Shown here: in pieces, positions 1-52,137 of the stretch
Layout: each line of letters starts with the position of its first letter
How positions within the stretch are numbered: position 1 is the first letter of the stretch
NCBI RefSeq assembly: GCF_044647545.1
Contig: NZ_CP172818.1
Strand: one strand, 5' to 3'
DNA: 64,000 bases
Source: Escherichia coli
Lineage (GTDB): Bacteria > Pseudomonadota > Gammaproteobacteria > Enterobacterales > Enterobacteriaceae
Translations under genes and position numbers: made by a program
Notes under the pieces: model-generated
What the model saw: only the letters and a program-made list of their open reading frames with translations
Database searches by the model: none
Told to the model about the DNA's origin: nothing

Positions 1-316
1 GCTGTGGGAATGGTCCATTTATTTACAGGAATTTTGAAGATCTTAAACATTGCCCATGCAAAAGCCACATAGGTCAAAATAATCAGTAAATCCATAAGTA
101 TTACTCGGCAGAAGAGGTCTTGATGTCGGCGAGCTGTTTCTCCAGCCCGGCAATACGCTGTTGTAGTTGCACAACGCCGGAGGAGTCATGGTTTTGCATT
201 CCCCATCCCCGCTCCGGGCGGTAAAGCGTGGCCCAAATCCACAAAATGGCCAGATAACATGCAGCGTAAAAAGACTCACCCAACCAGCAACATGAATGGC
301 GTCGGCATGAGGATGA

Positions 317-325
317 TTACGTTTT
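317..325. repeat. IS1 target-site duplication, left copy (ttacgtttt)
   Basis: Identical 9-bp direct repeat ttacgtttt immediately flanks both IS1 ends (317-325 and 1095-1103). Confidence 0.85.
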
Positions 326-351
326 GGTGATGCTGCCAACTTACTGATTTA

Positions 352-657
352 GTGTATGATGGTGTTTTTGAGGTGCTCCAGTGGCTTCTGTTTCTATCAG
401 CTGTCCCTCCTGTTCAGCTACTTGACGGGGTGGTGCGTAACGGCAAAAGCACCGCCGGACATCAGCGTTATCTCTGCTCTCACTGCCGTAAAACATGGCA
501 ACTGCAGTTCACTTACACCGCTTCTCAACCCGGTACGCACCAGAAAATCATTGATATGGCCATGAATGGCGTTGGATGCCGGGCAACCGCCCGCATTATG
601 GGCGTTGGCCTCAACGCGATTTTACGTCACTTAAAAAACTCAGGCCGCAGTCGGTAA
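352..657 (+). CDS. insA: IS1 InsA-like protein, N-terminus altered by a +1 insertion relative to canonical insA
   Basis: ORF-track protein matches InsA from ...[31 protein letters not shown]... to the stop. The canonical GTG start (381) frame hits TGA after about 14 codons because of an extra T at about 422-423 (gctacTtgacgggg). Confidence 0.75.
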
Positions 658-1079
658 CCTCGCGCATACAGCCGGGCAGTGACGTCATCGTCTGCGCGGA
701 AATGGACGAACAGTGGGGCTATGTCGGGGCTAAATCGCGCCAGCGCTGGCTGTTTTACGCGTATGACAGGCTCCGGAAGACGGTTGTTGCGCACGTATTC
801 GGTGAACGCACTATGGCGACGCTGGGGCGTCTTATGAGCCTGCTGTCACCCTTTGACGTGGTGATATGGATGACGGATGGCTGGCCGCTGTATGAATCCC
901 GCCTGAAGGGAAAGCTGCACGTAATCAGCAAGCGATATACGCAGCGAATTGAGCGGCATAACCTGAATCTGAGGCAGCACCTGGCACGGCTGGGACGGAA
1001 GTCGCTGTCGTTCTCAAAATCGGTGGAGCTGCATGACAAAGTCATCGGGCATTATCTGAACATAAAACACTATCAATAA
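576..1079 (+). CDS. insB: IS1 InsB reading frame (transposase C-terminal part, normally expressed as InsAB' by -1 frameshifting)
   Basis: 167-aa ORF (...[19 protein letters not shown]...[15 protein letters not shown]) matching IS1 InsB; A-rich slippery region ttaaaaaactc near the insA stop. Confidence 0.85.
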
Positions 1080-1094
1080 GTTGGAGTCATTACC

Positions 1095-1103
1095 TTACGT
1101 TTT
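1095..1103. repeat. IS1 target-site duplication, right copy (ttacgtttt)
   Basis: Same 9-mer as 317-325, directly abutting the IS1 right end. Confidence 0.85.
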
Positions 1104-1647
1104 TTAGCAATCAGGTAGGGAATATCATGTAAAATAATAATCCCATAGAATATCACCAGAAATACAAAAATAAGCACTCCCAGTGCAAAATAGTCCAGGA
1201 ACATATTTCCCTCAAAGAATATAAAAAAGAACAATTAACGCATATTATGAAATGCCATGATGCAGTGCAACTTCCTTATTTATATAACGACATATTGTTT
1301 TTTATATACTTTCTGAAATGTGCTGTCTGGTTTTTCAACAGGACGAGGTTTATCATATTGAAATAGTGGAACTATTGGCCAAACTAATGAATAACTCCAG
1401 TAAAACATCCACAGTACAGATTAAGCGTATTAAACCTTCAATTATCTACCGTTTATTGCTGATTGGCCTCGGATCACCAATGGTGATTTACGGCCTGGTT
1501 CGCCCGCTAACCATCGAAACGCGAGATTAAACGCCCGGCAATACACGCCGGGCAGCTTCTGCCAGAAACGCACTTCTGTTGGCGTAGTCTGGGTTATTGC
1601 GCACGTAGGTTTAAAACGTAAATTGTAACAACGTGCGCTTTGTTTAT

Positions 1648-1728
1648 GCCGGATGCGGCGTGTACCTTATCCGGCCTACGGTCAGGTTCCCGTAGGCATG
1701 ATAAGACGCGTAAGCGTCGCATCAGGCA
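1648..1728. repeat. REP/BIME element (two inverted REP units) downstream of aldB
   Basis: gccggatgcggcgtg...cttatccggcctacg followed by cgtaggcatgataagacgcgtaagcgtcgcatcaggca; classic REP palindromic units. Coordinates are approximate. Confidence 0.75.
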
Positions 1729-1758
1729 ATGAATACCCAATGCGACCAGCTTCTTACA

Positions 1759-6648: not shown

Positions 6649-8036
6649 TTCAACAACATCTCCAAAAACCGTTGCTCATCTTCAAGGCAGCGTAAATCCA
6701 GCCACAATCGTCCGTCATAAATACGACCAATCACCGGCACTGGCAATTCACGCCAGCGGGCGGCTAATGACTCAAGGTGGCTACCGCGTCCATCATGGGG
6801 TGTAAACGTTAATGCCGCGCTCGGCAGGCGATCAACCGGCAGCGAACCACTGCCAATCTGCGAAAGACATGGCATAACCTGTACCGCAAACTCCGCGCCG
6901 TAATGTGCGGCAAGGGGAGCCTGTAAACGTTGTGCCTGGATTTGAATGACCTCTGCGCTGCGGGTAAGCAGGCGCAGGGTCGGTAATTTTTTACTCAGAG
7001 CTTCAGGGTGTAAATAAAGACGCAACGTGGCTTCCAGCGCCGCAAGGGTCATTTTATCCGCGCGTAATGCACGCTTCAGCGGGTGGCTTTGCAGTCGGGC
7101 GATCATCTCTTTTTTACCAACAATAATTCCTGCCTGCGGCCCGCCTAACAACTTGTCGCCGGAGAAGCTCACCAGACTGACGCCCGCCGCAATCAACTCC
7201 TGCGGCATTGGCTCTTTCGGCAAACCGTACTGGCTAAGATCGACCAGCGAGCCACTGCCTAAATCAGTCACTACGGGGACATCCAGCTCTTTGCCGAGCG
7301 CCACCAGTTCCGCTTCATCTATCGCTTTGGTGAATCCCTGAATGCTGTAGTTACTGGTATGTACTTTCATCAACAGCGCGGTATTTTCATTCACCGCCTG
7401 GCGATAATCATTAGCGTGCGTGCGGTTGGTGGTCCCCACTTCGTGTAGGGTGCAGCCTGCCTGACGCATAACATCGGGAATACGAAACGCGCCGCCAATC
7501 TCCACCAGTTCGCCGCGAGAAACCACCACCTCTTTCCCGCTGGCAGTGGCCGCCAACATCAATAACACCGCCGCCGCATTGTTATTAACGATACAGGCAT
7601 CTTCCGCCCCCGTAATACGGCACAGCAGCTGCGCCAGCGCCCGATCGCGATGTCCGCGTCCGGCGTCGTCCAGATCGTACTCGAGGGTCACTGGCGAACG
7701 CATAGCCTTCGTAACGGCTTCCACCGCGGCTTCCGCCTGTAAAGCTCGCCCAAGGTTGGTATGCAGCACGGTTCCCGTCAGGTTGATTACCGGACGCAGC
7801 GCGCTTTGCGCCTCTTTCGTCAACCGGGCATCGACTTCTTGCGCCCAGTTTTCACACCACGCGGGAAGCGTCTGGCTGTCTCGAATCACTTCTCGCGCTT
7901 CGTCAAGCATCTGACGCAGCAATTCCACCACGCGGGTGTGACCATAAGTATCACGCAAAGAAAGGAAGGAGCTATCGCGCAATAAGCGATCAATAGCCGG
8001 AAGTTGACTATAGAGGGAACGCGTTTCGGTTGTCAT
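6645..8036 (-). CDS. selA: L-seryl-tRNA(Sec) selenium transferase
   Basis: 463-aa ORF ([19 protein letters not shown]...), PLP-dependent fold; selAB operon arrangement. Confidence 0.95.
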
Positions 8037-8133
8037 AGGAAACCTGGCTGATCAAGGCCCTCTCACACGGAGAAGGGCGTTTAACATAACCACGGATTGT
8101 AACGTGAGATGGGTCAGGAGGACATATCGCGCA

Positions 8134-8742
8134 TCAAGCCTTTGGCGGTTCGGTGCGAGCAAAACTTTCGCGGCTAAACAGGTTTTCGACCAGTTTGACT
8201 AAGTGTGGGCGGTCGACACACCAGCCTGGCGCAACGCGGCGGAAATTGAGATATCCGACGGCACAGGCAATGGCGATAGTCGCCAGATTGACCGTATCGG
8301 TTTTGAGCGTGCCATCGACCAGATATCCTTCCAGCACATCCAGACTGCGGTTGATTTTCTCCCGCTGGCGTAACAATTCATCTTCAGACTGCTGCGCCGC
8401 CGGACGCGCCTGTTCACGCACCGATACCAGCCCGGCATCCATAATGCCATCCGCCAGTGCCTCAATTTTGCGCACTCGCAACGACTCCAGCGGATCGCGC
8501 GGCAACATCGCCGGAGCGACATTCATTAATTCAATATATTCAGCGATGATCGCCGAATCAAACCAACATTCACCCTCTTCGGTCACCAGCACCGGCACTT
8601 TCCCTAACGGGTTAAATTGCGCCACGCCGTTGTCCGCGTTATAGGGCAGTTCATTAATAAATTCGAAAGTTATGCCCTTTTCTAACAACAGAATAGAAAG
8701 TTTGCGTACAAACGGGCTGGTGTAGCTACCGACGAGTTTCAT
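8134..8742 (-). CDS. yibF: Glutathione S-transferase-like protein
   Basis: 202-aa ORF ([24 protein letters not shown]...) with GST N-terminal thioredoxin-like fold signature; K-12 gene order. Confidence 0.85.
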
Positions 8743-8970
8743 GCCGAGTCCTTTGTGCGAGGAAAAATATCAGTATGGCCTGGTGATGGGAAAAAGGGCA
8801 GAAAATGTTGATGGTTTGTTACTTCCCAATAAATCACATATTTATCATGGTGATATAAATATTTTCCTAATTGTTCTTATCTGACAGATATCTCACTTAA
8901 GGCTTTCTTATAAATCTGTAGGGTTTCGCCTGTCAGCAGACAAATAACCCGATAAAACAAGGATGAGCAG

Positions 8971-11900
8971 ATGAGCGGAAAACCGGCGGCGCGTCAGGGC
9001 GACATGACGCAGTATGGCGGTAGCATTGTCCAGGGTTCAGCCGGGGTACGTATTGGTGCCCCCACCGGCGTGGCCTGTTCGGTGTGCCCCGGCGGAGTAA
9101 CGTCCGGCCATCCGGTCAATCCGCTGCTCGGTGCAAAGGTCCTTCCCGGCGAGACAGACATCGCCCTGCCCGGCCCGCTGCCGTTCATTCTCTCCCGCAC
9201 CTACAGCAGTTACCGGACAAAAACGCCCGCGCCGGTGGGGAGCCTCGGCCCCGGCTGGAAAATGCCTGCGGATATCCGCTTACAGCTGCGCGATAACACA
9301 CTGATACTCAGTGATAACGGCGGCAGAAGCCTGTATTTTGAGCACCTGTTTCCCGGTGAGGACGGTTACAGCCGCAGCGAGTCACTCTGGCTGGTGCGCG
9401 GCGGCGTGGCGAAACTGGATGAAGGTCACCGGCTGGCCGCACTCTGGCAGGCGCTGCCGGAAGAGCTTCGCCTGAGTCCGCATCGTTATCTGGCGACGAA
9501 CAGTCCACAGGGGCCGTGGTGGGTACTCGGCTGGTGTGAGCGGGTGCCGGAGGCGGATGAGGTGCTGCCTGCGCCGCTGCCGCCGTACCGGGTACTGACC
9601 GGGCTGGTGGACCGCTTCGGGCGCACACAGACGTTCCACCGTGAGGCTGGCGGCGAATTCAGCGGCGAAATCACCGGCGTGACGGATGGCGCAGGCCGTC
9701 ACTTCCGGCTGGTACTGACCACGCAGGCGCTGCGGGCAGAAGAGGCCCGGCAGAAGGCCATTTCCGGCGGGACGGAACCGTCCGCTTTTCCTGATACCCT
9801 GCCGGACTACACGGAATATGGCCGGGACAACGGTATCCGTCTGTCTGCCGTGTGGCTGACACACGACCCTGAATACCCGGAGAATTTACCTGCCGCGCCG
9901 CTGGTGCGCTATGGCTGGACGCCACGCGGCGAACTGGCGGTGGTGTATGACCGCAGCAATACACAGGTGCGCAGCTTTACTTACGATGATAAATACCGGG
10001 GCCGGATGGTGGCGCACCGTCACACGGGCCGGCCGGAAATCCGTTACCGTTACGACAGTGACGGGCGGGTGACAGAACAGCTAAACCCGGCAGGCTTAAG
10101 CTACACGTATCAGTATGAGAAAGACCGCATCACCATCACCGACAGCCTGGACCGCCGTGAAGTCCTGCATACCGCAGGCGAAGGCGGCCTGAAGCGGGTG
10201 GTGAAAAAGGAACACGCGGACGGCAGCGTCACGCAGAGTCAGTTTGACGCGGTGGGCAGGCTTAAGACACAGACGGATGCCGCAGGCCGGACAACAGAAT
10301 ACAGCCCGGATGTGGTGACGGGCCTCATCACGCGCATCACCACGCCGGATGGCAGGGCATCGGCGTTTTACTATAACCACCACAGCCAGTTAACGTCAGC
10401 CACCGGGCCTGACGGGCTGGAAATACGCCGGGAATATGATGAATCCGGCCGTCTGATTCAGGAAACCGCCCCTGACGGCGATATCACCCGCTACCGTTAT
10501 GATAATCCACACAGTGACTTCCCCTGCGCAACGGAAGATGCCACCGGCAGCCGGAAAACCATGACGTGGAGCCGTTACGGTCAGTTGCTGAGCTTCACCG
10601 ACTGTTCCGGCTACCAGACCCGTTATGACCATGACCGCTTCGGGCAGATGACGGCGGTGCACCGCGAGGAAGGCCTGAGCCAGTGCCGCGCATACGACAG
10701 CCGTGGACAGTTAATTGCCGTGAAAGACACGCAGGGCCATGAAACGCGGTATGAATACAACATCGCCGGTGACCTGACCGCCGTCATTGCCCCGGACGGC
10801 AGCAGAAACGGGACACAGTACGATGCGTGGGGAAAGGCCATCCGTACCACGCAGGGCGGGCTGACCCGCAGTATGGAATACGATGCTGCAGGACGGGTCA
10901 TCCGCCTGACAAACGAAAACGGCAGCCACACCACCTTCCGTTACGATGTACTCGACCGGCTGATACAGGAAACCGGCTTTGACGGCCGCACACAGCGTTA
11001 CCACCACGACCTGACCGGCAAACTTATCCGCAGCGAGGATGAGGGGCTGGTCACCCACTGGCACTATGACGAAGCAGACCGCATCACGCAGCGAACGGTG
11101 AATGGTGAAACCGCAGAACAGTGGCGGTACGACGAACGCGGCTGGCTGACACAAATCAGCCATCTCAGCGAAGGGCACCGGGTGACGGTGCATTACGGGT
11201 ATGATGAGAAAGGCCGCCTGACCGGTGAGCGCCAGACGGTGCATCATCCGCAGACGGAAGCACTGCTCTGGCAGCATGAGACCAGACATGCGTACAACGC
11301 GCAGGGGCTGGCGAACCGCTGTATACCGGACAACCTGCCCGCCGTGGAATGGCTGACTTATGGCAGTGGTTACCTGGCAGGGATGAAACTCGGCGACACA
11401 CCGCTGGTGGAGTACACCCGCGACCGCCTGCACCGGGAAACGCTGCGCAGCTTCGGCCGTTATGAACTCACCACCGCTTATACCCCTGCCGGGCAGTTAC
11501 AGAGCCAGCACCTGAACAGCCTGCAGTATGACCGCGATTACACCTGGAACGACAACGGCGAACTCATTCGCATCAGCAGCCCGCGCCAGACCCGGAGTTA
11601 CAGCTACAGCGACTCCGGCAGGCTGACCGGCGTTCACACCACCGCAGCGAACCTGGATATCCGCATCCCGTATGCCACGGACCCGGCAGGTAACCGCCTG
11701 CCCGACCCGGAGCTGCACCCGGACAGCACCCTCAGCATGTGGCCGGATAACCGTATCGCCCGTGACGCGCACTATCTTTACCGGTATGACCGTCACGGCA
11801 GGCTGACGGAGAAAACCGACCTCATCCCGGAAGGGGTTATCCGCACGGATGATGAGCGGACTCACCGGTACCATTACGACAGCCGGCACCGGCTGGTGCA

Positions 11901-12750
11901 CTACACGCGGACACAATATGCAGAGCCGCTGGTCGAAAGTCGCTATCTTTACGACCCGCTGGGCCGCAGGGTGGCAAAACGGGTGTGGCGGCGTGAACGG
12001 GACCTGACGGGCTGGATGTCGCTGTCACGGAAACCGGAAGTGACCTGGTACGGCTGGGACGGCGACCGCCTGACCACGATACAGAACGACAGAACCCGCA
12101 TCCAGACGGTTTATCAGCCGGGGAGCTTCACACCACTCATCAGGGTCGAAACCGCCACCGGTGAGCAGGCGAAAACGCAGCGCCGCAGCCTGGCGGATGC
12201 GCTTCAGCAGTCCGGCGGCGAAGACGGTGGCAGTGTGGTGTTCCCGCCGGTGCTGGTGCAGATGCTCGACCGGCTGGAAAGTGAAATCCTTACTGACCGG
12301 GTGAGTGAGGAAAGCCGCCGCTGGCTGGCATCGTGCGGCCTGACGGTGGCGCAGATGCAAAACCAGATGGACCCGGTGTACACGCCGGCGCGAAAAATCC
12401 ACCTGTACCACTGCGACCATCGCGGCCTGCCGCTGGCGCTTGTCAGCACGGAAGGGGCAACAGAATGGTGCGCAGAATACGATGAGTGGGGCAACCTGCT
12501 GAATGAAGAGAACCCGCACCAGCTGCAACAGCTTATCCGCCTGCCGGGTCAGCAGTATGATGAGGAGTCCGGCCTGTATTACAACCGCCACCGCTATTAT
12601 GACCCGCTGCAGGGGCGGTATATCACTCAGGATCCGATTGGGCTGAAGGGGGGATGGAATTTTTATCAGTATCCGTTGAATCCGATATCAGACATCGAGC
12701 CCCCTGGGTTTATCTATGTGGGAGGATGCAAAATCGGGGGCATGTACTAA
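8971..12750 (+). CDS. rhsA: Rhs-family core protein (RhsA-type) with N-terminal PAAR-like region and YD repeats; very short atypical C-terminal tip
   Basis: 1259-aa ORF starting [26 protein letters not shown]; many YD/RHS repeats (RYRYDxxGR); conserved core end ...[29 protein letters not shown], followed by only [21 protein letters not shown] before the stop. GC-rich, unlike the AT-rich DNA downstream. Confidence 0.9.
12241..12686 (+). repeat. 3' end of rhs core; copy A of a dispersed direct repeat (copies at 14626-15069 and 17213-17298)
   Basis: About 450 bp nearly identical to 14626-15069; the last 80 bp or so also recur at 17213-17298. Boundaries are approximate. Confidence 0.8.
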
Positions 12751-13754
12751 TGGTCTTTGCGGCATATCAGCTGTGATGAGAGGTGCATAAGTTTTTCATA
12801 GACCGCATATGACGCCTTAATAACAATAAAATTAAAATATATTTTCAATAAAATCAATAGCCAAATAAAATAAATAAATAAATTTTCCCTGCACCTAGAA
12901 CGTGGAGAAAGTTAGTACATACTATGGATGCAATAGCATTGACATAATGGTGGGACGAATATTTTCACTTCGACTAATGTGGTAGATATCAGATTTGGAC
13001 GAAATATTTTAAGCAAAGATGAAAATAATTAAAATAAACAACGAATAAATACCACCCCATTAATAAACAATAGATAACCACGGGAAGGAAATAACAAACG
13101 GAAAAGGATCCGATGCCAGAGTTATCGGTAATATTAAAAAAAAAAATATAAATAAAATAAATAAATTTTATTTAGCACTCCCATTTTTTTTACACAACAT
13201 GGCCATAATAATAATTTTAAAATAATAATGACGGGAAAGAGAGAAAGAAGGTAAACTGTAAAAGGATTACAAAAATTTGGTCTACAAATACAGGTTATAG
13301 TAAAAAAATATTTTTTAGAATTTATTGTATCTTTTTTTTTTTACAACAACACAGGTCGCAGTGTAATTACAGAGATATTAAAATAATGCTCAAATTTATG
13401 AAGCAGTGAGGCAGAAGAATATACATATAAACGCTTCATTAAAACAAGTGGGTAATTTGGTTAAAAATAAACTAACATTGAATTACAATATATGTTAAAA
13501 TCAGGCAACCAAAAAGAAAAAATATAAAATATGATTAACAACAAGTCTTGTTGAAGGCACCATTCACTCAGACCAAATTGCTGGTGGGGTTTTTATTAGA
13601 AAATAGGCAAAAATGATGGGGTAATTCTGAATTTTGGCCACGGAAAATAAGTATGTAAGGATAATCAAACATCGTGTGCGCTGATGGCAGAGTAGGTGGA
13701 GGACTCCAGACAGTCAAACGATAAAAAAAGATAGCCTTTATGGAGGCTCCTGCA

Positions 13755-14597
13755 ATGTCAAATACATACCAGAAAAGAAAGGCAAGTAAAGAGTATGGTT
13801 TATATAATCAATGTAAGAAACTAAATGATGATGAATTATTTCGCTTACTTGATGATCACAATTCCTTGAAAAGGATTTCATCTGCCAGAGTATTACAGTT
13901 AAGAGGTGGGCAAGACGCTGTTAGATTGGTAATTGAGTTCTGCTCTGATAAAAATTATATCCGTAGAGATATCGGAGCATTTATACTCGGGCAAATAAAA
14001 ATTTGCAAAAAATGCGAAGATAATGTGTTTAATATTTTGAACAATATGGCATTGAATGATAAGAGCGCTTGCGTTCGAGCTACGGCAATCGAGTCAACGG
14101 CTCAGCGATGCAAGAAAAACCCAATTTATTCACCTAAAATAGTAGAACAATCTCAAATTACTGCTTTTGATAAATCGACTAATGTCAGACGTGCTACAGC
14201 ATTTGCTATTTCTGTTATCAATGATAAAGCAACAATTCCACTATTGATTAATCTGTTAAAAGATCCAAATGGAGATGTCAGAAACTGGGCCGCATTTGCA
14301 ATAAATATCAATAAATATGATAATAGTGATATTAGGGATTGTTTTGTGGAGATGCTTCAGGATAAAAATGAGGAAGTCCGTATTGAAGCAATAATCGGAC
14401 TTTCCTACAGAAAAGATAAAAGGGTTTTATCTGTTTTATGCGATGAGTTAAAAAAAAATACTGTTTATGATGATATCATTGAAGCTGCGGGTGAATTAGG
14501 TGATAAAACGCTACTTCCTGTTTTAGATACTATGTTGTACAAGTTTGATGACAATGAAATTATAACTTCCGCTATTGATAAGCTGAAGCGTTCATAG
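13755..14597 (+). CDS. yibA: HEAT/armadillo-repeat protein YibA
   Basis: 280-aa product from the ATG at 13755 (MSNTYQKRKASKEYGLYNQ...); repeated helical DxxVRxxAxxAL-like units; sits inside the Rhs accessory region as in K-12. Confidence 0.85.
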   Translation: MSNTYQKRKASKEYGLYNQCKKLNDDELFRLLDDHNSLKRISSARVLQLRGGQDAVRLVIEFCSDKNYIRRDIGAFILGQIKICKKCEDNVFNILNNMALNDKSACVRATAIESTAQRCKKNPIYSPKIVEQSQITAFDKSTNVRRATAFAISVINDKATIPLLINLLKDPNGDVRNWAAFAININKYDNSDIRDCFVEMLQDKNEEVRIEAIIGLSYRKDKRVLSVLCDELKKNTVYDDIIEAAGELGDKTLLPVLDTMLYKFDDNEIITSAIDKLKRS

Positions 14598-14638: not shown

Positions 14639-15148
14639 GTGCAGATGCTCGATCGGCTGGAAAGTGAAATCCTGGCTGACCGGGTGAGTGAGGAAAGCCG
14701 CCGCTGGCTGGCATCGTGCGGCCTGACGGTGGAGCAGATGCAAAACCAGATGGACCCGGTGTTCACGCCGGCGCGAAAAATCCACCTGTACCACTGCGAC
14801 CATCGCGGCCTGCCGCTGGCCCTTATCAGCAAGGAAGGGACAACAGAATGGTACGCAGAATATGATGAATGGGGCAACCTGCTGAATGAAGAGAACCCGC
14901 ACCAGCTGCAACAGCTCATCCGCCTGCCGGGTCAGCAGTATGATGAGGAGTCCGGCCTGTATTACAACCGCCACCGCTATTATGACCCGCTGCAGGGGCG
15001 GTATATCACTCAGGATCCGATTGGGCTGAAGGGGGGATGGAATTTTTATCAGTATCCGTTGAATCCGATGACAACGGTTGATCCTCTTGGATTAAAATTT
15101 AAGGTAGAAGGTGACGGTCAGCTTTTGATTCTGCAATTGAATATTTGA
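14639..15148 (+). pseudogene. yibJ: Orphan Rhs core-end fragment (yibJ/rhsJ-like) with a truncated C-terminal tip
   Basis: GTG-initiated 169-aa ORF duplicating the last 150 residues or so of the rhsA core ([12 protein letters not shown]...[27 protein letters not shown]), then only 17 residues before the stop; no upstream core. Confidence 0.65.
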
Positions 15149-15536: not shown

Positions 15537-17284
15537 AATAATTTACCATGTACCTTAACAATATACGGTTGTAGTTGCTATATTTGTAAAGAGATTACCC
15601 CATCGAACCGGAATAAATGAAAATGACTATATTTTATGAGTTACTATCATCATTGAACAATCAGCATATAAGATAACCTCACCAAAAGCAGTTTAAACCA
15701 TGGTAAGTTGTAGAAGTGGGACATCTCGGCACCCCATTTTTTGTATGAAAAGTTACGAGAAATATATATTTTAATTTTTTTTTATATTATATATTAACCA
15801 AAATTAAAAAAACAACAATTTAAATAAAAAATTATTTATTACTTATATATTAACAATATCATAATAAATTCATTAAAACCGCTAGTTATAAATAATTATA
15901 AAAAAATCACAAATTGTTAAAATTTAATATTAATTATTTTAAAACAACCTAATGATATAAGATGGGGATTTATAGATCTAAGTGAAAGAGCTTGTTACTA
16001 TATTTTTATTTTTCTTTTGTTCCGGTGATTTGAATGGTATTAGTATGTTGAAAAAAATAGAAAAAAAGTGGAGGGGTCTAAGCCATAATATATCATTAGT
16101 GAAGAAAAGATGATGCATAAACTGAAATATAATATGGCAAAAAAGAATTCAAAGGCATCATTCTACTCCTGACTATTTTTCACATTTCCTCGAAGTTAAA
16201 TTGAAAATACGAGACGCAATATTAAAATTATACAAATGAATTCCAGAAAATCACGTAACGCTGCTTTTTTTACTAAACAATTCCATTTTATGTTTAAAAA
16301 TTAGATATCTATTAGAAGCTGTTTTTTATTGTTATAGATCATCAAAAATACTCCTTATAATAAAAGAACAAAATTGATTAAAAAATTGAAAATATTTATT
16401 ATCCATTACAACAATAAAAAATAAATTATATATTCTATTTGACTATTGGTTATTTCGTAGATGGTTGGGAAATATAACGATTATTGGAAAGATCAGCATC
16501 TCGGGATTTTTACAAGCAATATTGATTTTGAAAAGGGTATTCCTTTTCACGATACCATTCCAGATTTACCTGTATCAGATCTTGCATAATTTCACGAGAG
16601 CTTTATTAATTGGATGTGACATTCTCAGATGAAATAAAGCGTCATATTGTATGGAAACGATTTATACAAATCCCCAAATATTATTATGTAAAAATTTATC
16701 AAATAGAAATCAGACAGATGCGAAATCCAATGAGATCAAACAGCTACAAATTTAAAAATATTAAAAAAAATCATCACAAACGTATTAAAAATAAAAAATA
16801 CAAAAACATATTATTTATCTTAAAAGAAATCACCTAAATAAACCTAGAAAAATCATAAAATTAAATAACAAAATACATACCAATTATGAAAAATCACCAA
16901 AAAAATCTCTCACATTCATTCTATGAATTATTATTTCACTAATAAATCTAAAATCATTGCATCTCTCTCAATAATACAAACAAAAAAAAAAAAACGTCAA
17001 TATAATCATTCTTATTTAACCAAAGCTTCCACACAATCGAAACAGCACGGAAATAAGCCGCACTGGCGTCGACGCGGTAATGAATGAAGACGACTGCAAA
17101 ATAAGAAGAATCCGTAAACAGCAGAATTAGTTCTCAGGATACCGCACACGCTAGTAATATACGAATGATAAGTATTCAAGGCAGTGCTAAGACGTAATAT
17201 CGGTAACTTTTCCCGCCGCAGGGGCGGTATATCACTCAGGATCCGATTGGGCTGAAGGGGGGATGGAATTTTTATCAGTATCCG

Positions 17285-17758
17285 TTGAATCCGATAACTG
17301 ATATTGACCCGTTGGGATTAGCGACCTGTTTATACAGCATAACTTTAGGTATGCTTTCATGCGTTTCAGATACGTCAAGTGATGATAATTCTTATGGTGT
17401 GCTTACTATTTCAGTCGCCTCTGGTAATAATGGTAATAATATGCAATGTAAAAATAATCCTGGTTGTACACACTTACAAAATAGAGGCCCAATACCTCAA
17501 GGGGTATGGAGCTGGAATGTTAATGGTCCTGGAGCAACTAATAGAAAACCTAATGGTATACGTTTAGTACCGTCAGCAAATACAGAAACGTATAATCGTG
17601 ATGGATTTTTAACACATAGTTGTTTAAACGCTTTTGGTCCATCTTTAGGACCTCGATTCTGTTCCGAGGGGTGTATAACTGGTTCATCTAATGACATGCA
17701 AAAATTAAATGAGCTAATATTTTCAGAGCCAGATAGCACATTAACAGTGACGGACTAG
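17285..17758 (+). CDS. Orphan Rhs C-terminal toxin module; putative L,D-transpeptidase-like (YkuD/Tlde1-like) toxin domain
   Basis: Rhs core-end homology resumes at about 17213 ([36 protein letters not shown]); in-frame stop at 17204-17206 and no ATG before the TTG at 17285. The tip contains RGPIPQGVW and H-x15-SEGCI ([24 protein letters not shown]), resembling the LD-transpeptidase catalytic His/Cys signature. Confidence 0.6.
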
Positions 17759-17762
17759 AAAT

Positions 17763-18284
17763 ATGGCAAGGTTATTAACAATTGTGCTTTTTTTCTCTAT
17801 TTCTGCGAATGCAGTTACTGTAAACCAATTTCAGAGAGAGTTGGATTTGGCAGACAAGGCAATATTATGGGCACTAATATCAGCCAGTACCCAAGAGGGA
17901 CGAAAAGCGTGTTCACTTAGCTATTTTTCATGTAAAGCCGCAGAGGCTGAACTCGGACTGGCATATATGGCTGCTAATGATAACAAGGCATTTCTCACAT
18001 CCTTATCTAGAATAATGATGTACAAAATAGATGCTGGACTTTCCGAATCCTATACATGCTATTTATTAAGCAAGGGAAAGATCATAAGACCATATCTGAA
18101 GAATCTAAATCCACACCAACTTGTCGCTGATTGCATTGAAACTGTAAATAAAATAAAAGATAAAAATAAAAAAATCATTGATATAGATTCAGTTAATATT
18201 TGCAATGATAATAAAAATATAAATTGGAGAGTTAATAGTACTATTGTAGCCATTGATGATTCTATAAAATGCATCGATGAATAA
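17763..18284 (+). CDS. Putative secreted (periplasmic) immunity protein paired with the upstream orphan Rhs toxin
   Basis: 173-aa ORF starting 5 bp after the toxin stop; N-terminal signal-peptide-like segment MARLLTIVLFFSISANA followed by a Cys-containing soluble domain; AT-rich like the toxin tip. Confidence 0.5.
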   Translation: MARLLTIVLFFSISANAVTVNQFQRELDLADKAILWALISASTQEGRKACSLSYFSCKAAEAELGLAYMAANDNKAFLTSLSRIMMYKIDAGLSESYTCYLLSKGKIIRPYLKNLNPHQLVADCIETVNKIKDKNKKIIDIDSVNICNDNKNINWRVNSTIVAIDDSIKCIDE

Positions 18285-18741
18285 TAACTTAATTATATTT
18301 AAAAATATATTAATAACTCACTCTCCAGGAGTTTTTTTAACTTAGTGTTATAATGAATACGATAATTAAAAGTGAAGAGAAAAATAGTTGTATACATATA
18401 TTCCATGAACCTACATTGTGATCTATAAATTAAATATTTTTAAATGTGACTATCATCCTTCAGATAATAAAGCCATCATCGCAATAGATGGAAAAGCACT
18501 CCTGCTCTTTTTTGATTAGAGCCGTGGCAGAGGAACAACTCATATCATCATTGCGATCTCGACAATGTATAGTCTGATCCTTCGGCAGATCAAGACGGAT
18601 AAAAAATCCAATGAGTTCACACTCATCCCGAACTTCTTAACATAATGGATATTAACGAAAAATCATCACAGCCGATGAAATAATATGCAAAAATAATTAG
18701 TCCTTGCAGGGAGCAAAGTTCCATAATCTCCCCCGCCCCCC

Positions 18742-25387: not shown

Positions 25388-25423
25388 GAACACAGTATCT
25401 ACAGGGTGATTCTGCACATTCCT

Positions 25424-42963: not shown

Positions 42964-43923
42964 ATGCGGGTTTTGATCGTTAAAACATCGTCGATGGGCG
43001 ATGTTCTCCATACGTTGCCCGCACTCACTGATGCCCAGCAGGCAATCCCAGGGATTAAGTTTGACTGGGTGGTGGAAGAAGGGTTCGCACAGATTCCTTC
43101 CTGGCACGCCGCCGTTGAGCGAGTTATTCCTGTGGCAATACGTCGCTGGCGTAAAGCCTGGTTCTCGGCCCCCATAAAAGCTGAACGCAAAGCGTTTCGT
43201 GAAGCGCTACAAGCAGAGAACTATGACGCAGTTATCGATGCTCAGGGGCTGGTAAAAAGCGCGGCGCTGGTGACGCGTCTGGCGCATGGCGTAAAGCATG
43301 GCATGGACTGGCAAACCGCTCGCGAACCTTTAGCCAGCCTGTTTTACAATCGTAAGCATCATATTGCGAAACAGCAGCACGCCGTAGAACGCACCCGCGA
43401 ACTGTTTGCCAAAAGTTTGGGCTATAGCAAACCGCAAACCCAGGGCGATTATGCTATCGCACAGCATTTCCTGACGAACCGGCCTACAGATGCTGGCGAA
43501 TATGCCGTATTTCTTCATGCGACGACCCGTGATGATAAACACTGGCCGGAAGAACACTGGCGAGAATTGATTGGTTTACTGGCTGATTCAGGAATACGGA
43601 TTAAACTTCCGTGGGGCGCGCCGCATGAGGAAGAACGGGCGAAACGACTGGCGGAAGGATTTGCTTATGTTGAAGTATTGCCGAAGATGAGTCTGGAAGG
43701 CGTTGCCCGCGTGCTGGCCGGGGCTAAATTTGTAGTGTCGGTGGATACGGGGTTAAGCCATTTAACGGCGGCACTGGATAGACCCAATATCACGGTTTAT
43801 GGACCAACCGATCCTGGATTAATTGGTGGGTATGGGAAGAATCAGATGGTTTGTAGGGCTCCAAGAGAAAATTTAAATAACCTCAACAGTCAAGCAGTTT
43901 TGGAAAAGTTATCATCATTATAA
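42964..43923 (+). CDS. waaC: LPS heptosyltransferase I
   Basis: 319-aa ORF (MRVLIVKTSSMGDVLHTLPALTDAQQAIPG...). Confidence 0.95.
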   Translation: MRVLIVKTSSMGDVLHTLPALTDAQQAIPGIKFDWVVEEGFAQIPSWHAAVERVIPVAIRRWRKAWFSAPIKAERKAFREALQAENYDAVIDAQGLVKSAALVTRLAHGVKHGMDWQTAREPLASLFYNRKHHIAKQQHAVERTRELFAKSLGYSKPQTQGDYAIAQHFLTNRPTDAGEYAVFLHATTRDDKHWPEEHWRELIGLLADSGIRIKLPWGAPHEEERAKRLAEGFAYVEVLPKMSLEGVARVLAGAKFVVSVDTGLSHLTAALDRPNITVYGPTDPGLIGGYGKNQMVCRAPRENLNNLNSQAVLEKLSSL

Positions 43924-43932
43924 AGGTAAAAC

Positions 43933-45192
43933 ATGCTAACATCCTTTAAACTTCATTCATTGAAACCTTACACTCTGAAATCATCAATGATTTTAGAGAT
44001 AATAACTTATATATTATGTTTTTTTTCAATGATAATTGCATTCGTCGATAATACTTTCAGCATAAAAATATATAATATCACTGCTATAGTTTGCTTATTG
44101 TCACTAATTTTACGTGGCAGACAAGAAAATTATAATATAAAAAACCTTATTCTTCCCCTTTCTATATTTTTAATAGGCTTGCTTGATTTAATTTGGTATT
44201 CTGCGTTTAAAGTAGATAATTCGCCATTTCGTGCTACTTACCATAGTTATTTAAATACTGCCAAAATATTTATATTTGGTTCTTTTATTGTTTTCTTGAC
44301 ACTAACTAGCCAGCTAAAATCAAAAAAAGAGAGTGTATTATACACTTTGTATTCTCTGTCATTTCTAATTGCTGGATATGCAATGTATATTAATAGCATT
44401 CATGAAAATGACCGCATTTCTTTTGGTGTAGGAACGGCAACAGGAGCAGCATATTCAACAATGCTAATAGGGATAGTTAGTGGCGTTGCGATTCTTTATA
44501 CTAAGAAAAATCATCCTTTTTTATTTTTATTAAATAGTTGCGCGGTACTTTATGTTCTGGCGCTAACACAAACCAGAGCAACCCTACTCCTGTTCCCTAT
44601 AATTTGTGTTGCTGCATTAATAGCTTATTATAATAAATCACCCAAGAAATTCACTTCCTCTATTGTTCTACTAATTGCTATATTAGCTAGCATTGTTATT
44701 ATATTTAATAAACCAATACAGAATCGCTATAATGAAGCATTAAATGACTTAAACAGTTATACCAATGCTAATAGTGTTACTTCCCTAGGTGCAAGACTGG
44801 CAATGTACGAAATTGGTTTAAATATATTCATAAAGTCACCTTTTTCATTTAGATCAGCAGAGTCACGCGCTGAAAGTATGAATTTGTTAGTTGCAGAACA
44901 CAATAGGCTAAGAGGGGCATTGGAGTTTTCTAACGTACATCTACATAATGAGATAATTGAAGCAGGGTCACTGAAAGGTCTGATGGGAATTTTTTCCACA
45001 CTTTTCCTCTATTTTTCACTATTTTATATAGCATATAAAAAACGAGCTTTGGGTTTGTTGATATTAACGCTTGGCATTGTGGGGATTGGACTCAGTGATG
45101 TGATCATATGGGCACGCAGCATTCCAATTATCATTATATCCGCTATAGTCCTCTTACTCGTCATTAATAATCGTAACAATACAATTAATTAA
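43933..45192 (+). CDS. waaL: O-antigen ligase (K-12 type)
   Basis: 419-aa polytopic membrane ORF (MLTSFKLHSLKPYTLKSSMILEIITYILCFF...), AT-rich. Confidence 0.9.
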   Translation: MLTSFKLHSLKPYTLKSSMILEIITYILCFFSMIIAFVDNTFSIKIYNITAIVCLLSLILRGRQENYNIKNLILPLSIFLIGLLDLIWYSAFKVDNSPFRATYHSYLNTAKIFIFGSFIVFLTLTSQLKSKKESVLYTLYSLSFLIAGYAMYINSIHENDRISFGVGTATGAAYSTMLIGIVSGVAILYTKKNHPFLFLLNSCAVLYVLALTQTRATLLLFPIICVAALIAYYNKSPKKFTSSIVLLIAILASIVIIFNKPIQNRYNEALNDLNSYTNANSVTSLGARLAMYEIGLNIFIKSPFSFRSAESRAESMNLLVAEHNRLRGALEFSNVHLHNEIIEAGSLKGLMGIFSTLFLYFSLFYIAYKKRALGLLILTLGIVGIGLSDVIIWARSIPIIIISAIVLLLVINNRNNTIN

Positions 45193-45223
45193 GAATAAAC
45201 AAGTTTAAGAAGTGAGTTAAAAC

Positions 45224-46297
45224 TCACTTCTTATCTATACAACTTAATCTCTTTACTGAATTAGTTAAAGTTTCAGTATCGATATCTTTTACCGTATATG
45301 TTGGGGATACTATTTGTATAGATTTATGATGATTCGGGGACCAAATTAAATGCGAGGGATATTCCGGAGTACGTGAATTAGGGTAAAATGCAAGCGTTGG
45401 TTTATGATAAGCCGCAGCGATATGAACAAGAGCTGTATCAACAGAAATGACAAAATCACTATACTTGGTCAACGCAACGGTATAAATAAACTCATCAAAT
45501 GGTAGTGTTTCGATTTCAAGTATTGGTATTGTCAATAAATCTTGCGGTAACCCGGTAAATATAATCCGATAATTTTCAAAGTGTGTTTTCACTTCTTGAT
45601 ATATAACTTTTATTTGCTCAAACGTAAGACGGCATATTTTTTTTGCACCTAATGGATTAATAATGACTATTCTTGTATCTCCAATAAATTCTTTTATTTT
45701 ATCTTCAACATCTACTGGTAAATGCAAGTCGTAGTTGGTGGAAAATTTACCCTCACCATAAATATGCTTCAGTATTTCTATTGCTCGTGTACTCATATGT
45801 TCTTTTAAACATTCATCGTGGGGATGGTAAAATGAATAGTAACGCTTATACCAATGATCAAAACCCAGAATGTAAGAATCTTTTAAACTTGATAATATTA
45901 AGCTATGCTTAAATGAGGGCATAGTTTCAAAGGGGTCTAATACAATATCGAACTGTAAATCCCGCAGATGCTTACATAGAGTAAGCATTTCAAGAAAACC
46001 GGTTGATTCTTTAATACAGAACTCAAATATATTTTTATTATTAGAGAGAAATTCCCCACCCTTTCTATTTGTGAGAAGAGTTATTTTAACCCCTTTACTA
46101 TAAAGTTCACGATAAATCGAACTTAATACAATTAGATCACCAAGTTTATTATTATCATGAATAATAAGGCATGATTTAACTTGTGCTGGATCTGTAATTT
46201 GATTATTTATTTTATTACGAAATAAAAAAGAAAGGAAATTAATCTTGATTTTGTTTATATAAAATCTTTTCTTTTTGTGAAAAGTTCCTAAGCGCAT
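45224..46297 (-). CDS. waaU: LPS core heptosyltransferase IV (WaaU/RfaK)
   Basis: 357-aa GT9-family ORF; position in the K-12 core cluster. Confidence 0.85.
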   Translation of the reverse strand: MRLGTFHKKKRFYINKIKINFLSFLFRNKINNQITDPAQVKSCLIIHDNNKLGDLIVLSSIYRELYSKGVKITLLTNRKGGEFLSNNKNIFEFCIKESTGFLEMLTLCKHLRDLQFDIVLDPFETMPSFKHSLILSSLKDSYILGFDHWYKRYYSFYHPHDECLKEHMSTRAIEILKHIYGEGKFSTNYDLHLPVDVEDKIKEFIGDTRIVIINPLGAKKICRLTFEQIKVIYQEVKTHFENYRIIFTGLPQDLLTIPILEIETLPFDEFIYTVALTKYSDFVISVDTALVHIAAAYHKPTLAFYPNSRTPEYPSHLIWSPNHHKSIQIVSPTYTVKDIDTETLTNSVKRLSCIDKK

Positions 46298-46329
46298 TTT
46301 TATACCATATTATTTTAGTTTCAGGATGA

Positions 46330-47181
46330 TTAATTAGCATAAGAATCGGTTGAAGTTCTATATTGCATTTTTTTTCTTGTCATATCTTTTGATTCTTCTG
46401 CACTGATGTCTTGAAGTTTAATAAATGGAATTACATCGTAAGAAATAGCTGTATCATCTGATAAATTATAAATATTAATATCTTTTACATTATCATGCAT
46501 AAAACGAAAAAATGGCAATATTTTGAATAAATCCCTACTTAATTCCGAGGGCATGGGATTTTTATTCTCATCATAGAAACGAGAACAGCTACCCGTTAAA
46601 TCAAGACCAGAACAAATAATCCGCGCATACTTAAGTGAATATGCGATTTGAATTGCAGCAAAGGCAATAGTATGGCATGAGCAATAACCAAGACTAATGT
46701 CCTTGCAAAATCCAACCAGACGACCTTTTTTAGACAACGGTACAGAGATCAGCAGTTCTTTGTGAATCTGTCTCAAAATATTAAATTTAATCTTCTTTAT
46801 AAAACCACCTTTTTCCCGACGGTAAAAGGACCGTAATACGAGGCAGTTCTGGAGGATATAAAGTTTATCTTCTTTGGAAGCGTGTTCATAAACGTCAACG
46901 TTTACTATGGTATAACGACTTCTCTGGCTAAATTTATAAAAATCATCACGACGCTGATGTAAAAATCGGACATCTGTAAGTACATATATAAAAGGAACGA
47001 TATTATTACTTAACAGATATTGCGCAGAACCATTGACAGCAATAATATCCTTTGTTCGTAATACTGACAAAGGTGTTTTTTGCGATGTAGGGCCCGAAAG
47101 AAAAATAATAACATCATCAGATATTTTATTTTCAATCAGGTTTTCAACATCTTTTTTGTCAATGTATCTAATATTCTTCAT
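46330..47181 (-). CDS. waaZ: LPS core biosynthesis protein WaaZ (KdoIII-related)
   Basis: 283-aa ORF (MKNIRYIDKKDVENLIENKISDDVIIFLSGPTSQ...); K-12 core-type gene. Confidence 0.8.
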   Translation of the reverse strand: MKNIRYIDKKDVENLIENKISDDVIIFLSGPTSQKTPLSVLRTKDIIAVNGSAQYLLSNNIVPFIYVLTDVRFLHQRRDDFYKFSQRSRYTIVNVDVYEHASKEDKLYILQNCLVLRSFYRREKGGFIKKIKFNILRQIHKELLISVPLSKKGRLVGFCKDISLGYCSCHTIAFAAIQIAYSLKYARIICSGLDLTGSCSRFYDENKNPMPSELSRDLFKILPFFRFMHDNVKDINIYNLSDDTAISYDVIPFIKLQDISAEESKDMTRKKMQYRTSTDSYAN

Positions 47182-47251
47182 GATAAACCTGTGAAATAAA
47201 TAACTCCGCTTAAAACTGTCCTGGTGAAGACATGTAATTGTGGGATTTTTT

Positions 47252-47950
47252 TTAGCGCGCTGGTTTCCCTTTCAAACGCCGCATAAAATTGCGCATTTTT
47301 TTACGATATACTAAAAGATAATAGCCTAGATCTCTAATCTCATTTTTAATACCGTAATGACGCTCTAAGTCAATACGATCTTTCGCTTTACGCTGCGCTG
47401 AAGCACGCTTTCCGGAGAGATCGATAATTCGAACCTCACCATTTTTTATAATGAAGTTACCACGATGGGGGTCGCCAGAAACCATGCCATGTTGATGTAA
47501 GGCATTAATTGATTGCTGAATTTTATTTTTTAGCGCATCATCAATATCGGGCATATCACACAACTCTATGCCATCAATATACTCGATGATCATGATATAA
47601 GTATGGACAAAACGTAAGGTTTTCCGTTCAGCCAATAAATAAAAGTCATTGAGTGTATTTAACCCTTCATTTCGTACTTTTTGGGTTTGCTCAAAAAGGC
47701 GTTCGTAATAATCACCTTTTAACAGAGACTTAAAGAAACGTTCGTTACGCTTAACTTTCGGAGAAAAAACCTTAAGAATCAATTTACCGTAATCGGTATC
47801 AATAAGCATAACTTTTGTATCATCAATAGAACGAAAAACCTTGATGATATTTATATTATAAGACAAGAAGTCATTTAATACATTGAGGTACTTTGAATTG
47901 TTTTCATCGGTAAAAACAACCAAGTCTTTGATCTTGCTCTTCTGAATCAT
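47252..47950 (-). CDS. waaY: LPS core heptose II kinase WaaY
   Basis: 232-aa ORF (MIQKSKIKDLVVFTDENNSKYLNVLNDF...), WaaP-like kinase fold. Confidence 0.85.
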   Translation of the reverse strand: MIQKSKIKDLVVFTDENNSKYLNVLNDFLSYNINIIKVFRSIDDTKVMLIDTDYGKLILKVFSPKVKRNERFFKSLLKGDYYERLFEQTQKVRNEGLNTLNDFYLLAERKTLRFVHTYIMIIEYIDGIELCDMPDIDDALKNKIQQSINALHQHGMVSGDPHRGNFIIKNGEVRIIDLSGKRASAQRKAKDRIDLERHYGIKNEIRDLGYYLLVYRKKMRNFMRRLKGKPAR

Positions 47951-47967
47951 AATAAACCAGTTAAATG

Positions 47968-48984
47968 TTATTTACGGTAATATTTTCGGCAAAGATAACA
48001 GACTCCTGCTATAATTCCTGAGATATAATGATGTTGCACTAAAAGATGTTTATATCTTTTTTTAAATTCAATAATTGATTTCGCATCTCGTGGAGAGTCA
48101 TCTTTCCAGGGGGAATTTTCTAAAGCTATTTTATAGTATTTTACCGATGGATAAATTGCCCATTTGTGCCACGGTTTAGTTGCACCTGTATAATGAATAA
48201 GAAGAGTACTTTCTGTAATCAGCTTTTTATAGTTTTGATGTGTTTTGTCTTTTAATTCACTTTTAATTGTATAAATTGTATTGTACTCACGAGGCAAAAA
48301 TAATGTCATCCCTTTCAGTAAGACATTCATAACATCCTGATCAGGGTATTTATAAACATTATCTTTACTCATAAGAATAGACAACGCTTTTTCTGTTAGT
48401 TTTGCGTCAGCCCATTTTTTTAAGTCTAAATAAACGACACCGGAATTAAAGTACTGCCCAAGTAATTCAGGATCAGACAACCTGGATACCGCCTTTTCTT
48501 GCATTGGCTCAACATCTTTAACAACAGCAGCAACCGCTCCATTTAAACCCAGATGTAATAGTTGGCTAATATCGCCTTTACAAACAACATCTGCATCAAG
48601 ATAAAGCAAACGATCAAGCGTTAAACCCAATAATTGAAATGCAAATAAACGGAAGTACATTGCTCTTGACCAGACCTGTGTACAAGGCAAGCACTGGAGC
48701 TTATCAGTGTTAATTCTATATAACGTGATTCTTAATTGGTTTTGCTCTGCAAGCTTTGCAATTTTTTGAAAAAAACCATCATTATAAACATCAGCAATAA
48801 TATAAAAATCAAGATTAATATGTCGATTATTTAGGACAATTGATGTGATGGAAACACCTACACCATCAAGATAATTAGCATCGACACCATAGGCAACATT
48901 TAAACATTCAGAAGTATTTATATTAGCTAGCCGAAAATCCCAGGCTTTAACTTTATCTATCTCTATGGCAGGAAATGAGTCCAC
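47968..48984 (-). CDS. waaJ: LPS 1,2-glucosyltransferase (WaaJ/WaaR, GT8)
   Basis: 338-aa GT8 ORF with a DxD motif. Confidence 0.85.
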   Translation of the reverse strand: MDSFPAIEIDKVKAWDFRLANINTSECLNVAYGVDANYLDGVGVSITSIVLNNRHINLDFYIIADVYNDGFFQKIAKLAEQNQLRITLYRINTDKLQCLPCTQVWSRAMYFRLFAFQLLGLTLDRLLYLDADVVCKGDISQLLHLGLNGAVAAVVKDVEPMQEKAVSRLSDPELLGQYFNSGVVYLDLKKWADAKLTEKALSILMSKDNVYKYPDQDVMNVLLKGMTLFLPREYNTIYTIKSELKDKTHQNYKKLITESTLLIHYTGATKPWHKWAIYPSVKYYKIALENSPWKDDSPRDAKSIIEFKKRYKHLLVQHHYISGIIAGVCYLCRKYYRK

Positions 48985-49023
48985 AATGCTACCCTTATAT
49001 CATTACTTTATAGTTTCCCAGTT

Positions 49024-51122: not shown

Positions 51123-51165
51123 AGAAACTCTCATTAATTGAGTAAAACTCACTGTTTTAACGGTT

Positions 51166-52101
51166 TTATTTGTCTATAAAATCAGAAACAATCGTTGACA
51201 TCATTTTATCTGGACTGAATTTATATAAACTATCATAATCCATTGGTTTAACAGATGAGTTAATAAAATACTCTAACTTATCCCAATCATCATGACCTAT
51301 TATAAAAAAGCGAGATTCACTATAGATTTCTGAACCAAATACATTTATATTATTAGTAATTAATTTTTTATTGAAAAATAGTGCCTCAAGTATACGAAGA
51401 GTCCAGCCAGATTGGTTTTCTTTGGTTATATCAACAATTATATTAGCATTTAATGTTCTTCTAATATTCTCTTCATAAGATATTTGTTTTTCAATCAAAT
51501 ACTTTGAAGTCGTAGATGATGTCTTATCTTTGACAACATTAAAATCTAGCTTACATCCTAGTGTTGTTAATCTCTCGGCTAACTCATTAATTATTTGAAG
51601 ACGCCCTTTATCACGACCAAGGAAAAAACATATTGGCTGGCTGTTATTTTTGTCAGATAAACTATAATTTCTAATTTCATCCATTCCTATAGGAAAAAAT
51701 TGTTCTATTGCCTTGATCTTTTCATTCCCTATAAATCTATGCTCAAAATCATATATAATATCGAAATAATTCGCGTTATCAAGAATAAAATCTTCGCCAA
51801 CAGTATTTCTTAGAAGCAAAACTTTATGACAGTTAATATTTTTTAATATTTGTTTATTGATACCTTTATTAACAACACTGTCATTAATGATAATTATGTC
51901 ATCTTTTTTAATATCATTGAGGTAATGCTTGATGAATAATCGCCCCAGCCATGCATTATCCATCCCTATTTTTGATATTTTTTTATTAATCCAGTTATAT
52001 TTTTTTGGTGTTGTTATATTTTTTATCTTGTACTTTTTTTTCAGGTACTGAATCATTTTTAATTCATAATCTGCAACCCAATTTATAAAATAAATAGTCA
52101 T
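51166..52101 (-). CDS. waaS: LPS core biosynthesis protein WaaS (rhamnosyltransferase-like)
   Basis: 311-aa AT-rich ORF ([33 protein letters not shown]...). Confidence 0.8.
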
Positions 52102-52137
52102 AATAAAGTTAGTTCCAGTACATACTAATAAATATTT

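Follow-up and report, generated by a model that had tools for sequence, protein, structure and literature searches.

The 64-kb window analysed here, that is, the whole stretch of Escherichia coli DNA under study, is set in the rhsA (yibF-mtlA) locus of this species, and its genes follow the order selB-selA-yibF, a full-length rhs (8971-12750), yibA (13740-14597), a first orphan rhs fragment (14639-15148), a cassette (17204-18284), yibH, yibI, and mtlA. The subject of this report is the cassette, which comprises a stub of rhs core (17213-17320), a predicted toxin tip resembling Tlde1 and the L,D-transpeptidases (LD-transpeptidases; 17321-17758), and a predicted immunity gene of the Imm57 family (17763-18284). 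It is preceded by a degraded copy of a transposase gene from the ISAs1 family of insertion sequences (IS), placed at 16330-17206 (start approximate) by alignment to the ISAs1 of E. coli CFSAN061771 (coding sequence 7771-8907 of the retrieved locus L003). All of these features lie on the + strand, as do the first orphan fragment and the main rhs gene, the latter encoding DUF6531, RHS repeats, and an RHS core, with its tip truncated just past the core.

The stub ends in the PxxxxDPxGL motif, and residues 3-38 of its frame match positions 1226-1261 of the 1261 in NCBIfam RHS_core, as well as Rhs_assc_core; a sequence search of the PDB returned solved Rhs core structures for the same stretch. At the nucleotide level, 17218-17296 repeats without mismatch the 79 bp that close the main rhs core (12609-12687), its likely recombination partner, and shares 78 identical bp with the core-end repeat of the first orphan (14992-15069), a fragment in which about 450 bp of core is joined to a different tip. 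No rhs core sequence was found upstream of the stub. The original prediction, made from the DNA letters, had described exactly such a core end repeated without its upstream core and closed off by an in-frame stop at 17204-17206, and both descriptions hold. The TAA at 17204-17206 is indeed in frame with the stub, and in an alignment with CFSAN061771, where an ISAs1 transposase gene directly adjoins the stub, it falls on the stop codon of that gene, strain WB61 likewise having ISAs1 there, which argues that the orphan was truncated by an IS element and that its upstream boundary is probably not a mutation inside rhs. The features that define an orphan rhs module are thus all present, namely a core fragment ending in PxxxxDPxGL, devoid of upstream core and start signals and located downstream of a full-length rhs. 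With a GC content of 0.376, against 0.619 for the rhs core, the tip is AT-rich, as had been claimed, and the Imm57 open reading frame (ORF) is more so (0.335); low GC of the tip relative to the core is characteristic of Rhs tips.

The tip consists of 145 codons (17321-17755) followed by TAG (17756-17758), slightly fewer than the 150 residues first proposed. It contains the stretch RGPIPQGVW, a His at residue 99 (17615-17617), the sequence SEGC (17663-17674) with Cys118 (17672-17674), and six more conserved Cys at residues 3, 14, 43, 49, 101, and 114. The Pfam family Tlde1_dom (PF10908, formerly DUF2778) matches the tip over model positions 10-106 of 120 with an E-value of 5.5e-7 (30.5 bits), and is also matched by 27 of 34 diverse relatives at E<=0.001, the best at 3.4e-15. 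The original prediction had named both this family and YkuD as profiles that the tip should match, and it was right about the former: the Pfam YkuD profile gave no match to the tip itself and recognised a single one of the 34 relatives at E<=0.001 (2.8e-8). In a weak, non-significant profile match, the His and Cys of the tip family correspond to H123 and C139 of YkuD from B. subtilis. The argument from His-to-SEGC spacing also stood, as the tip motif H99-x15-S115-E-G-C118 fits the published HXX14-17-(S/T)HGC motif; the residue before Gly is Glu in the tip, not His, whose place is taken by E, A, N, K, T, or Q in different family members and by Lys in YkuD. In NCBIfam, only the core stub of this frame was assigned to a family; the tip sequence past it and the Imm57 ORF both drew no match.

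Relatives of the tip are widespread. A word-based search yielded 22, which are short orphan-like proteins of E. coli, Ralstonia, Paraburkholderia, and metagenomes, and a profile search of 1.84 billion representatives gave 396 clusters at E<=0.001, of which 116 cluster representatives covering the domain were used for conservation analysis. The domain occupies the extreme C-terminus in 113 of these 116 relatives, several of which are Rhs proteins of 1378-1616 aa, and Rhs proteins of full length with related tips also occur in other taxa. Across this set, Gly117 and Cys118 are kept in 100%, Ser115 in 99%, and His99 in 97%, so that the residues singled out in the original prediction are the conserved family positions; the GPxPxG stretch (residues 56-61) is retained in more than 95%, and Cys 3, 14, 43, 101, and 114 in 88-100%. 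Cys49 is invariant among nine close relatives and falls below 80% in the 116-member set. One E. coli tip variant cluster (P0001, 117 member sequences) has CFEGC for CSEGC, losing the Ser kept in 99%; this change may be inactivating, in what would be a silent orphan.

An AlphaFold2 model of the tip, built from nine sequences, reached a predicted local distance difference test score (pLDDT) of 74 and a predicted template modelling score (pTM) of 0.75. As the original prediction had expected, the top 17 Foldseek matches of this model were all LD-transpeptidases, at weak E-values, including Tlde1a of Salmonella Typhimurium (PDB 7UMA), with which the tip shares 19% sequence identity over the structural alignment. 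The possibility that the His/Cys motif had arisen by chance in AT-rich sequence is rejected in view of the profile match, the fold, and the conservation in the 116 representatives.

The original prediction had further stated that the tip contains no ATG and can be expressed only after recombination or from an internal TTG. An in-frame ATG does exist at 17351-17353 (the Met in ITLGMLSC), and it is the start chosen by the NCBI Prokaryotic Genome Annotation Pipeline (PGAP) for an identical sequence in RefSeq, the 135-aa 'tlde1 domain-containing protein' WP_072020486.1. This annotation raises the question of whether the 135-aa ORF could be a gene in its own right, translated from ATG 17351 and active alone, which is very unlikely. 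No convincing Shine-Dalgarno sequence precedes this ATG (tttaggt ATG), nor TTG 17285, and promoter-like sites are no commoner than in shuffled sequence (9 against 10.5 expected), a result in itself uninformative on expression. A product initiated there would miss the first beta-strand and the conserved Cys3, present in 88% of relatives, and, despite a predicted target in the periplasm, would carry no signal peptide; the C-terminal placement of the domain in larger proteins in 113/116 relatives likewise speaks against independent action.

The Imm57 ORF (17763-18284, 173 aa) starts 4 nt past the tip stop codon, where a gap of 5 bp had been reported, and begins with a signal-peptide-like segment, MARLLTIVLFFSISANA (17763-17813). 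Pfam Imm57 (PF15596) matches it at an E-value of 2e-44 over model positions 2-100 of 100, and both the tip and the Imm57 proteins are 100% identical to RefSeq proteins, the latter named 'Imm57 family immunity protein' (WP_022646265.1). At the N-terminus, the positive n-region MAR is followed by a hydrophobic core of 11 residues (mean Kyte-Doolittle 2.5) and then by A-N-A ahead of Val18, and homologues at 23-33% identity keep a hydrophobic N-terminal segment ending in A-x-A together with six invariant Cys. The retention of these features points to a Sec-exported, disulfide-bonded periplasmic protein, in line with the signal-peptide-like start and the immunity role originally suggested for this ORF. 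Zhang et al. (2012) introduced Imm57 as a family of predicted immunity proteins adjoining Tox-LD-peptidase toxins, and the Tox-LD-peptidase toxin is listed there with RHS repeats, the type VI secretion system, and Imm16/Imm57 (PMC3482391). In Ralstonia pseudosolanacearum (locus L005), a related tip is likewise followed at once by an Imm57 gene, as is a 1385-aa metagenomic Rhs bearing this tip (locus L006). The papers searched contained no experimental work on Imm57 proteins, and the two that mention the family are bioinformatic on this point.

The composition of the two proteins also bears on the idea that they form an intracellular toxin-antitoxin pair, expressed from internal signals and regulating the growth of the producer itself, for which a precedent is reported in the Salmonella orphan rhs (PMC7043789). 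This is extremely improbable, since export is predicted for the immunity protein and peptidoglycan is the substrate of the toxin fold, so that a cytoplasmic copy of the toxin would find nothing to act on, and the conserved Cys, seven of them in the tip and six in Imm57, suggest the oxidising periplasm.

The tip-plus-immunity segment was matched in 3690 of 5426 complete E. coli genomes, at an identity of at least 99% in 293 and of 90-95% in 3359, and several natural states were distinguished. The first is the stub behind ISAs1, seen in the window, WB61, and CFSAN061771, and the second an orphan with about 1 kb of core, located behind rhsC-ybfB in strain 6409. In the third, strain 2013C-4282 carries at the same locus the tip (96% identical) on an intact Rhs of 1389 aa that is followed immediately by Imm57, neither yibA nor the other orphan region lying in between; this is the product expected of a deletion between the direct core-end repeats. 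The existence of this fusion bears out the part of the original prediction that foresaw expression after recombination; its claim about the sole available start fails on ATG 17351. The fourth state, in strain E105, is a fused form broken by an internal stop, with Imm57 frameshifted, and the fifth is decay in a K-12-lineage strain, where the first half of the tip has acquired frameshifts and stops and Imm57 is also frameshifted. The latter strain, E. coli O16:H48 PG20180058, carries a cassette allele of about 90.7% identity (8806-9968 of locus L004), with a diverged, AT-richer rhs core remnant upstream, and the small ORFs and pseudogenes between its yibG and yibH are remnants of the toxin/immunity pair. 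In the H44 genome, Imm57 is kept and the tip is only partial. The series of states, from fused to an orphan with about 1 kb of core, to a stub of about 100 bp behind an IS, to decayed, offers a within-species picture of the displacement and redeployment of Rhs tips.

In a serious alternative, compatible with the main explanation, the module is kept for the protection that Imm57 would give against the Rhs-Tlde1 toxins of others and the toxin fragment is a relic never redeployed. Such an immunity-only role has a considerable, although clearly less than even, chance of being the correct account. It is favoured by an intact Imm57 with a partial Shine-Dalgarno sequence (GGA) 9-11 nt upstream of its start, by the existence of strains such as 2013C-4282 with the predicted toxin on a full-length Rhs, by the mere 79 bp of homology left, and by H44, which keeps Imm57 with just part of the tip; orphan immunity genes are moreover a known phenomenon (PMC10539506). 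Against a mere relic stand the 183-codon toxin frame, which is stop-free with every conserved residue retained, and the joint decay of toxin and Imm57 in K-12. Divergence between alleles is mostly synonymous, with a ratio of nonsynonymous to synonymous substitution rates (dN/dS) for the tip of 0.16 relative to the E105 allele and, for its C-terminal half, of 0.22 relative to K-12 (small samples), and therefore argues for purifying selection on the domain for most of its history. The corresponding values for Imm57 are 0.35-0.43, also from small samples.

Taken together, the region is very probably an orphan rhs-CT/rhsI module, made up of a core remnant of about 100 bp cut by ISAs1, a toxin domain of the Tlde1/YkuD superfamily, and an Imm57 protein predicted to be exported, and potentially activatable by recombination. 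This reading builds on the established family and fold membership of the tip, the conservation of its His and Cys, the linkage of toxin and Imm57 across taxa, and the natural fused form. Where it now lies, the toxin part would be silent, because core, export determinant, and a credible ribosome-binding site are all missing. A full-length Rhs bearing the tip would arise if RecA-type recombination joined the 79-bp repeat to the main core end, either through a deletion or through a duplication with subsequent recombination. From then on, the Rhs shell would enclose the tip, cleavage at DPLGL would release it, and a type VI secretion system would presumably carry it into the periplasm of a neighbouring cell. 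In the target periplasm, the six extra Cys would form disulfides, and Cys118 and His99 would cut or remodel the stem peptide at the bond between meso-diaminopimelic acid (mDAP) and D-Ala, as Tlde1a does; the Tlde1a chemistry has been described (PMC9638812). Imm57 in the periplasm of the producer would block the tip enzyme, and an intact Imm57 could protect against the same toxin from other E. coli whether or not the resident toxin is activated. A scan for terminators, uninformative on expression, found none on the + strand after Imm57.

Several points weigh against this reading of the module. The recombination repeat is only 79 bp long, compared with 522 bp in the Salmonella precedent, in which activation of an orphan Rhs by recombination has been demonstrated (PMC3967940), so activation should be rare with homology this much shorter. 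The main rhs is truncated as sequenced, and, if this is real, the locus is at present without a working rhs, although simple fusion to the tip would be enough to regain an intact gene. The 64-kb window contains no type VI secretion genes, and delivery is assumed. The commonest allele class (about 90.7% identity, 3359 genomes) is represented by the examined K-12-lineage genome, and the cassette of that genome has decayed. Imm57 is called an immunity family by gene neighbourhood only, and both the toxicity of the tip and protection by Imm57 are predicted. As for the enzyme itself, the active-site loop of the model (residues 102-114, between His99 and Cys118) has a pLDDT below 50. Sequence-only searches of the PDB with single-sequence phmmer and with a nine-sequence profile missed Tlde1a and returned Rhs cores or nothing, while LD-transpeptidase/YkuD matches of a 34-sequence profile were non-significant (E 0.46-1.1); the link to solved structures therefore rests on the fold comparison.

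Among known systems, the Tlde1 effectors, of which Tlde1a is the structural reference, share with the tip the Pfam match, the His and the Cys of SxGC, an immunity partner (predicted to be exported in the case of the tip), and a periplasmic peptidoglycan target, which for the tip is predicted and agrees with a Cys content suggestive of disulfides. Several differences separate them. Tlde1 effectors are small stand-alone cargo, whereas the tip is the C-terminal end of an Rhs; 18 residues lie between His and Cys in the tip, as in YkuD, and 9 in Tlde1a; Glu precedes Gly where the Tlde1 motif has His; and the partner is Imm57 instead of DUF2195 (Tldi1a). YkuD-type enzymes (PF03734; LdtMt2, Ldtfm, YkuD, Csd6, and Pgp2) have the same catalytic fold and the motif H-x(15-18)-[S/T]xGC, but serve housekeeping functions and possess additional domains as well as signal peptides of their own, whereas the tip is a predicted delivered toxin domain with an immunity partner.

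These differences leave room for a tip of the same fold with other chemistry, acting as a pure LD-carboxypeptidase, in the manner of Csd6 and Pgp2, or cleaving the link between Lpp and peptidoglycan, as DpaA does. This is possible, if doubtful. The H-x15-SxGC spacing is YkuD-like and longer than that of Tlde1a (H121/C131), the immunity family is Imm57 and not DUF2195/Tldi1a, and the capping insert of Tlde1a is said to be absent from other subfamilies (PMC9638812); a preprint alignment suggests that the Rhs-borne clade lacks it (10.1101/2020.02.18.954545). Nothing in the analysis discriminates between these activities, and, as all of them target the same wall layer, the overall picture of a peptidoglycan-targeting module would be unchanged. 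More speculatively, the Rhs-borne, seven-Cys, Imm57-paired clade (396 clusters at 50% identity) might constitute a biochemically distinct branch of the LD-transpeptidase superfamily, with an envelope action possibly unlike that of Tlde1a and neutralised by the Imm57 fold, a proposal that can be put forward only tentatively.

The closest architectural counterparts of the orphan module are the Tox-LD-peptidase/Imm57 pairs (PMC3482391) and the Rhs-DUF2778 fusions (10.1101/2020.02.18.954545), which show the same architecture in beta- and gamma-proteobacteria; these Rhs-borne forms are bioinformatic in both sources. No difference in kind separates them from the module in the window, which is an orphan behind ISAs1. 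Sibinelli-Sousa et al. gave a Rhs-DUF2778 example from Shigella sonnei, counted Escherichia among the genera carrying the family, and reported Rhs-DUF2778 fusions in 11% of the genomes with the Tae7 (later Tlde1c) family (10.1101/2020.02.18.954545). The reading of the cassette is correct yet already known from Zhang 2012, Sibinelli-Sousa 2020, and the RefSeq names, and contains nothing new in kind. Its assignment explains the uncharacterised and pseudogene ORFs downstream of rhsA as remains, decayed or intact, of a predicted peptidoglycan-targeting Rhs warhead with its antidote.

As an orphan, the module resembles STM0292 of Salmonella Typhimurium LT2 (Koskiniemi et al. 2014, PMC3967940), which is likewise a displaced toxin/immunity pair downstream of the main rhs, with a piece of core, no start or export signals, and a fused version in other strains of the species. 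The two differ in the extent of homology, which is 79 bp exact (about 100 bp in all) in the window and 522 bp at 95% for STM0292, in the upstream boundary, which is an IS element in the window unlike in STM0292, and in the site of action, predicted to be periplasmic for the window toxin and cytoplasmic for that of STM0292.

Comparison with CFSAN061771 revealed 97-99.4% identity over most of the window and 99.7% for the cassette (17203-18700). Two blocks, at about 12765-13590 and 15690-17200, depart from this pattern, being about 50-75% identical to CFSAN061771, AT-enriched, indel-rich, and ORF-free, whereas the sequence between and after them is 99.7-100% identical and the flanks of 12765-13590 are 96-100% identical. 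None of the complete E. coli genomes matches the degraded blocks above 73%. The first block corresponds to the main Rhs tip and a yhhH-type immunity gene, with G>A as the commonest change; the main Rhs ORF stops at 12750 because one extra nucleotide, absent from CFSAN061771, is present near 12699. The second covers a spacer and the ISAs1-family transposase gene, of which no ORF survives, and has a 59-nt deletion near its 3' end relative to CFSAN061771; ISAs1 is multi-copy in the matching genomes. A sequencing, assembly, or gap-filling artefact seems a more likely origin of these blocks than biology such as local hypermutation. If they are artefactual, the truncation of the main rhs at 12750 and the frame relation between the TAA and the stub may not be real. 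That the cassette itself is unreliable sequence is rejected in view of its 99.7% identity to CFSAN061771 and the complete identity of its proteins to RefSeq entries.

The tip of the first orphan rhs diverges from the CFSAN061771 version after about 8 residues; the CFSAN061771 counterpart is a RefSeq pseudogene and is followed by a 100-aa hypothetical ORF. Window positions 1-1756 and 43880-52242 remained unaligned to CFSAN061771 at the thresholds used, and the latter interval falls within the waa gene region for the lipopolysaccharide core, suggesting a different core type. CFSAN061771 in turn carries about 6 kb extra between window positions 25388 and 25484, including a YadA-like adhesin gene. 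The unaligned stretches and this extra segment argue that the window comes from a strain other than CFSAN061771, the closest match for the rhs region.

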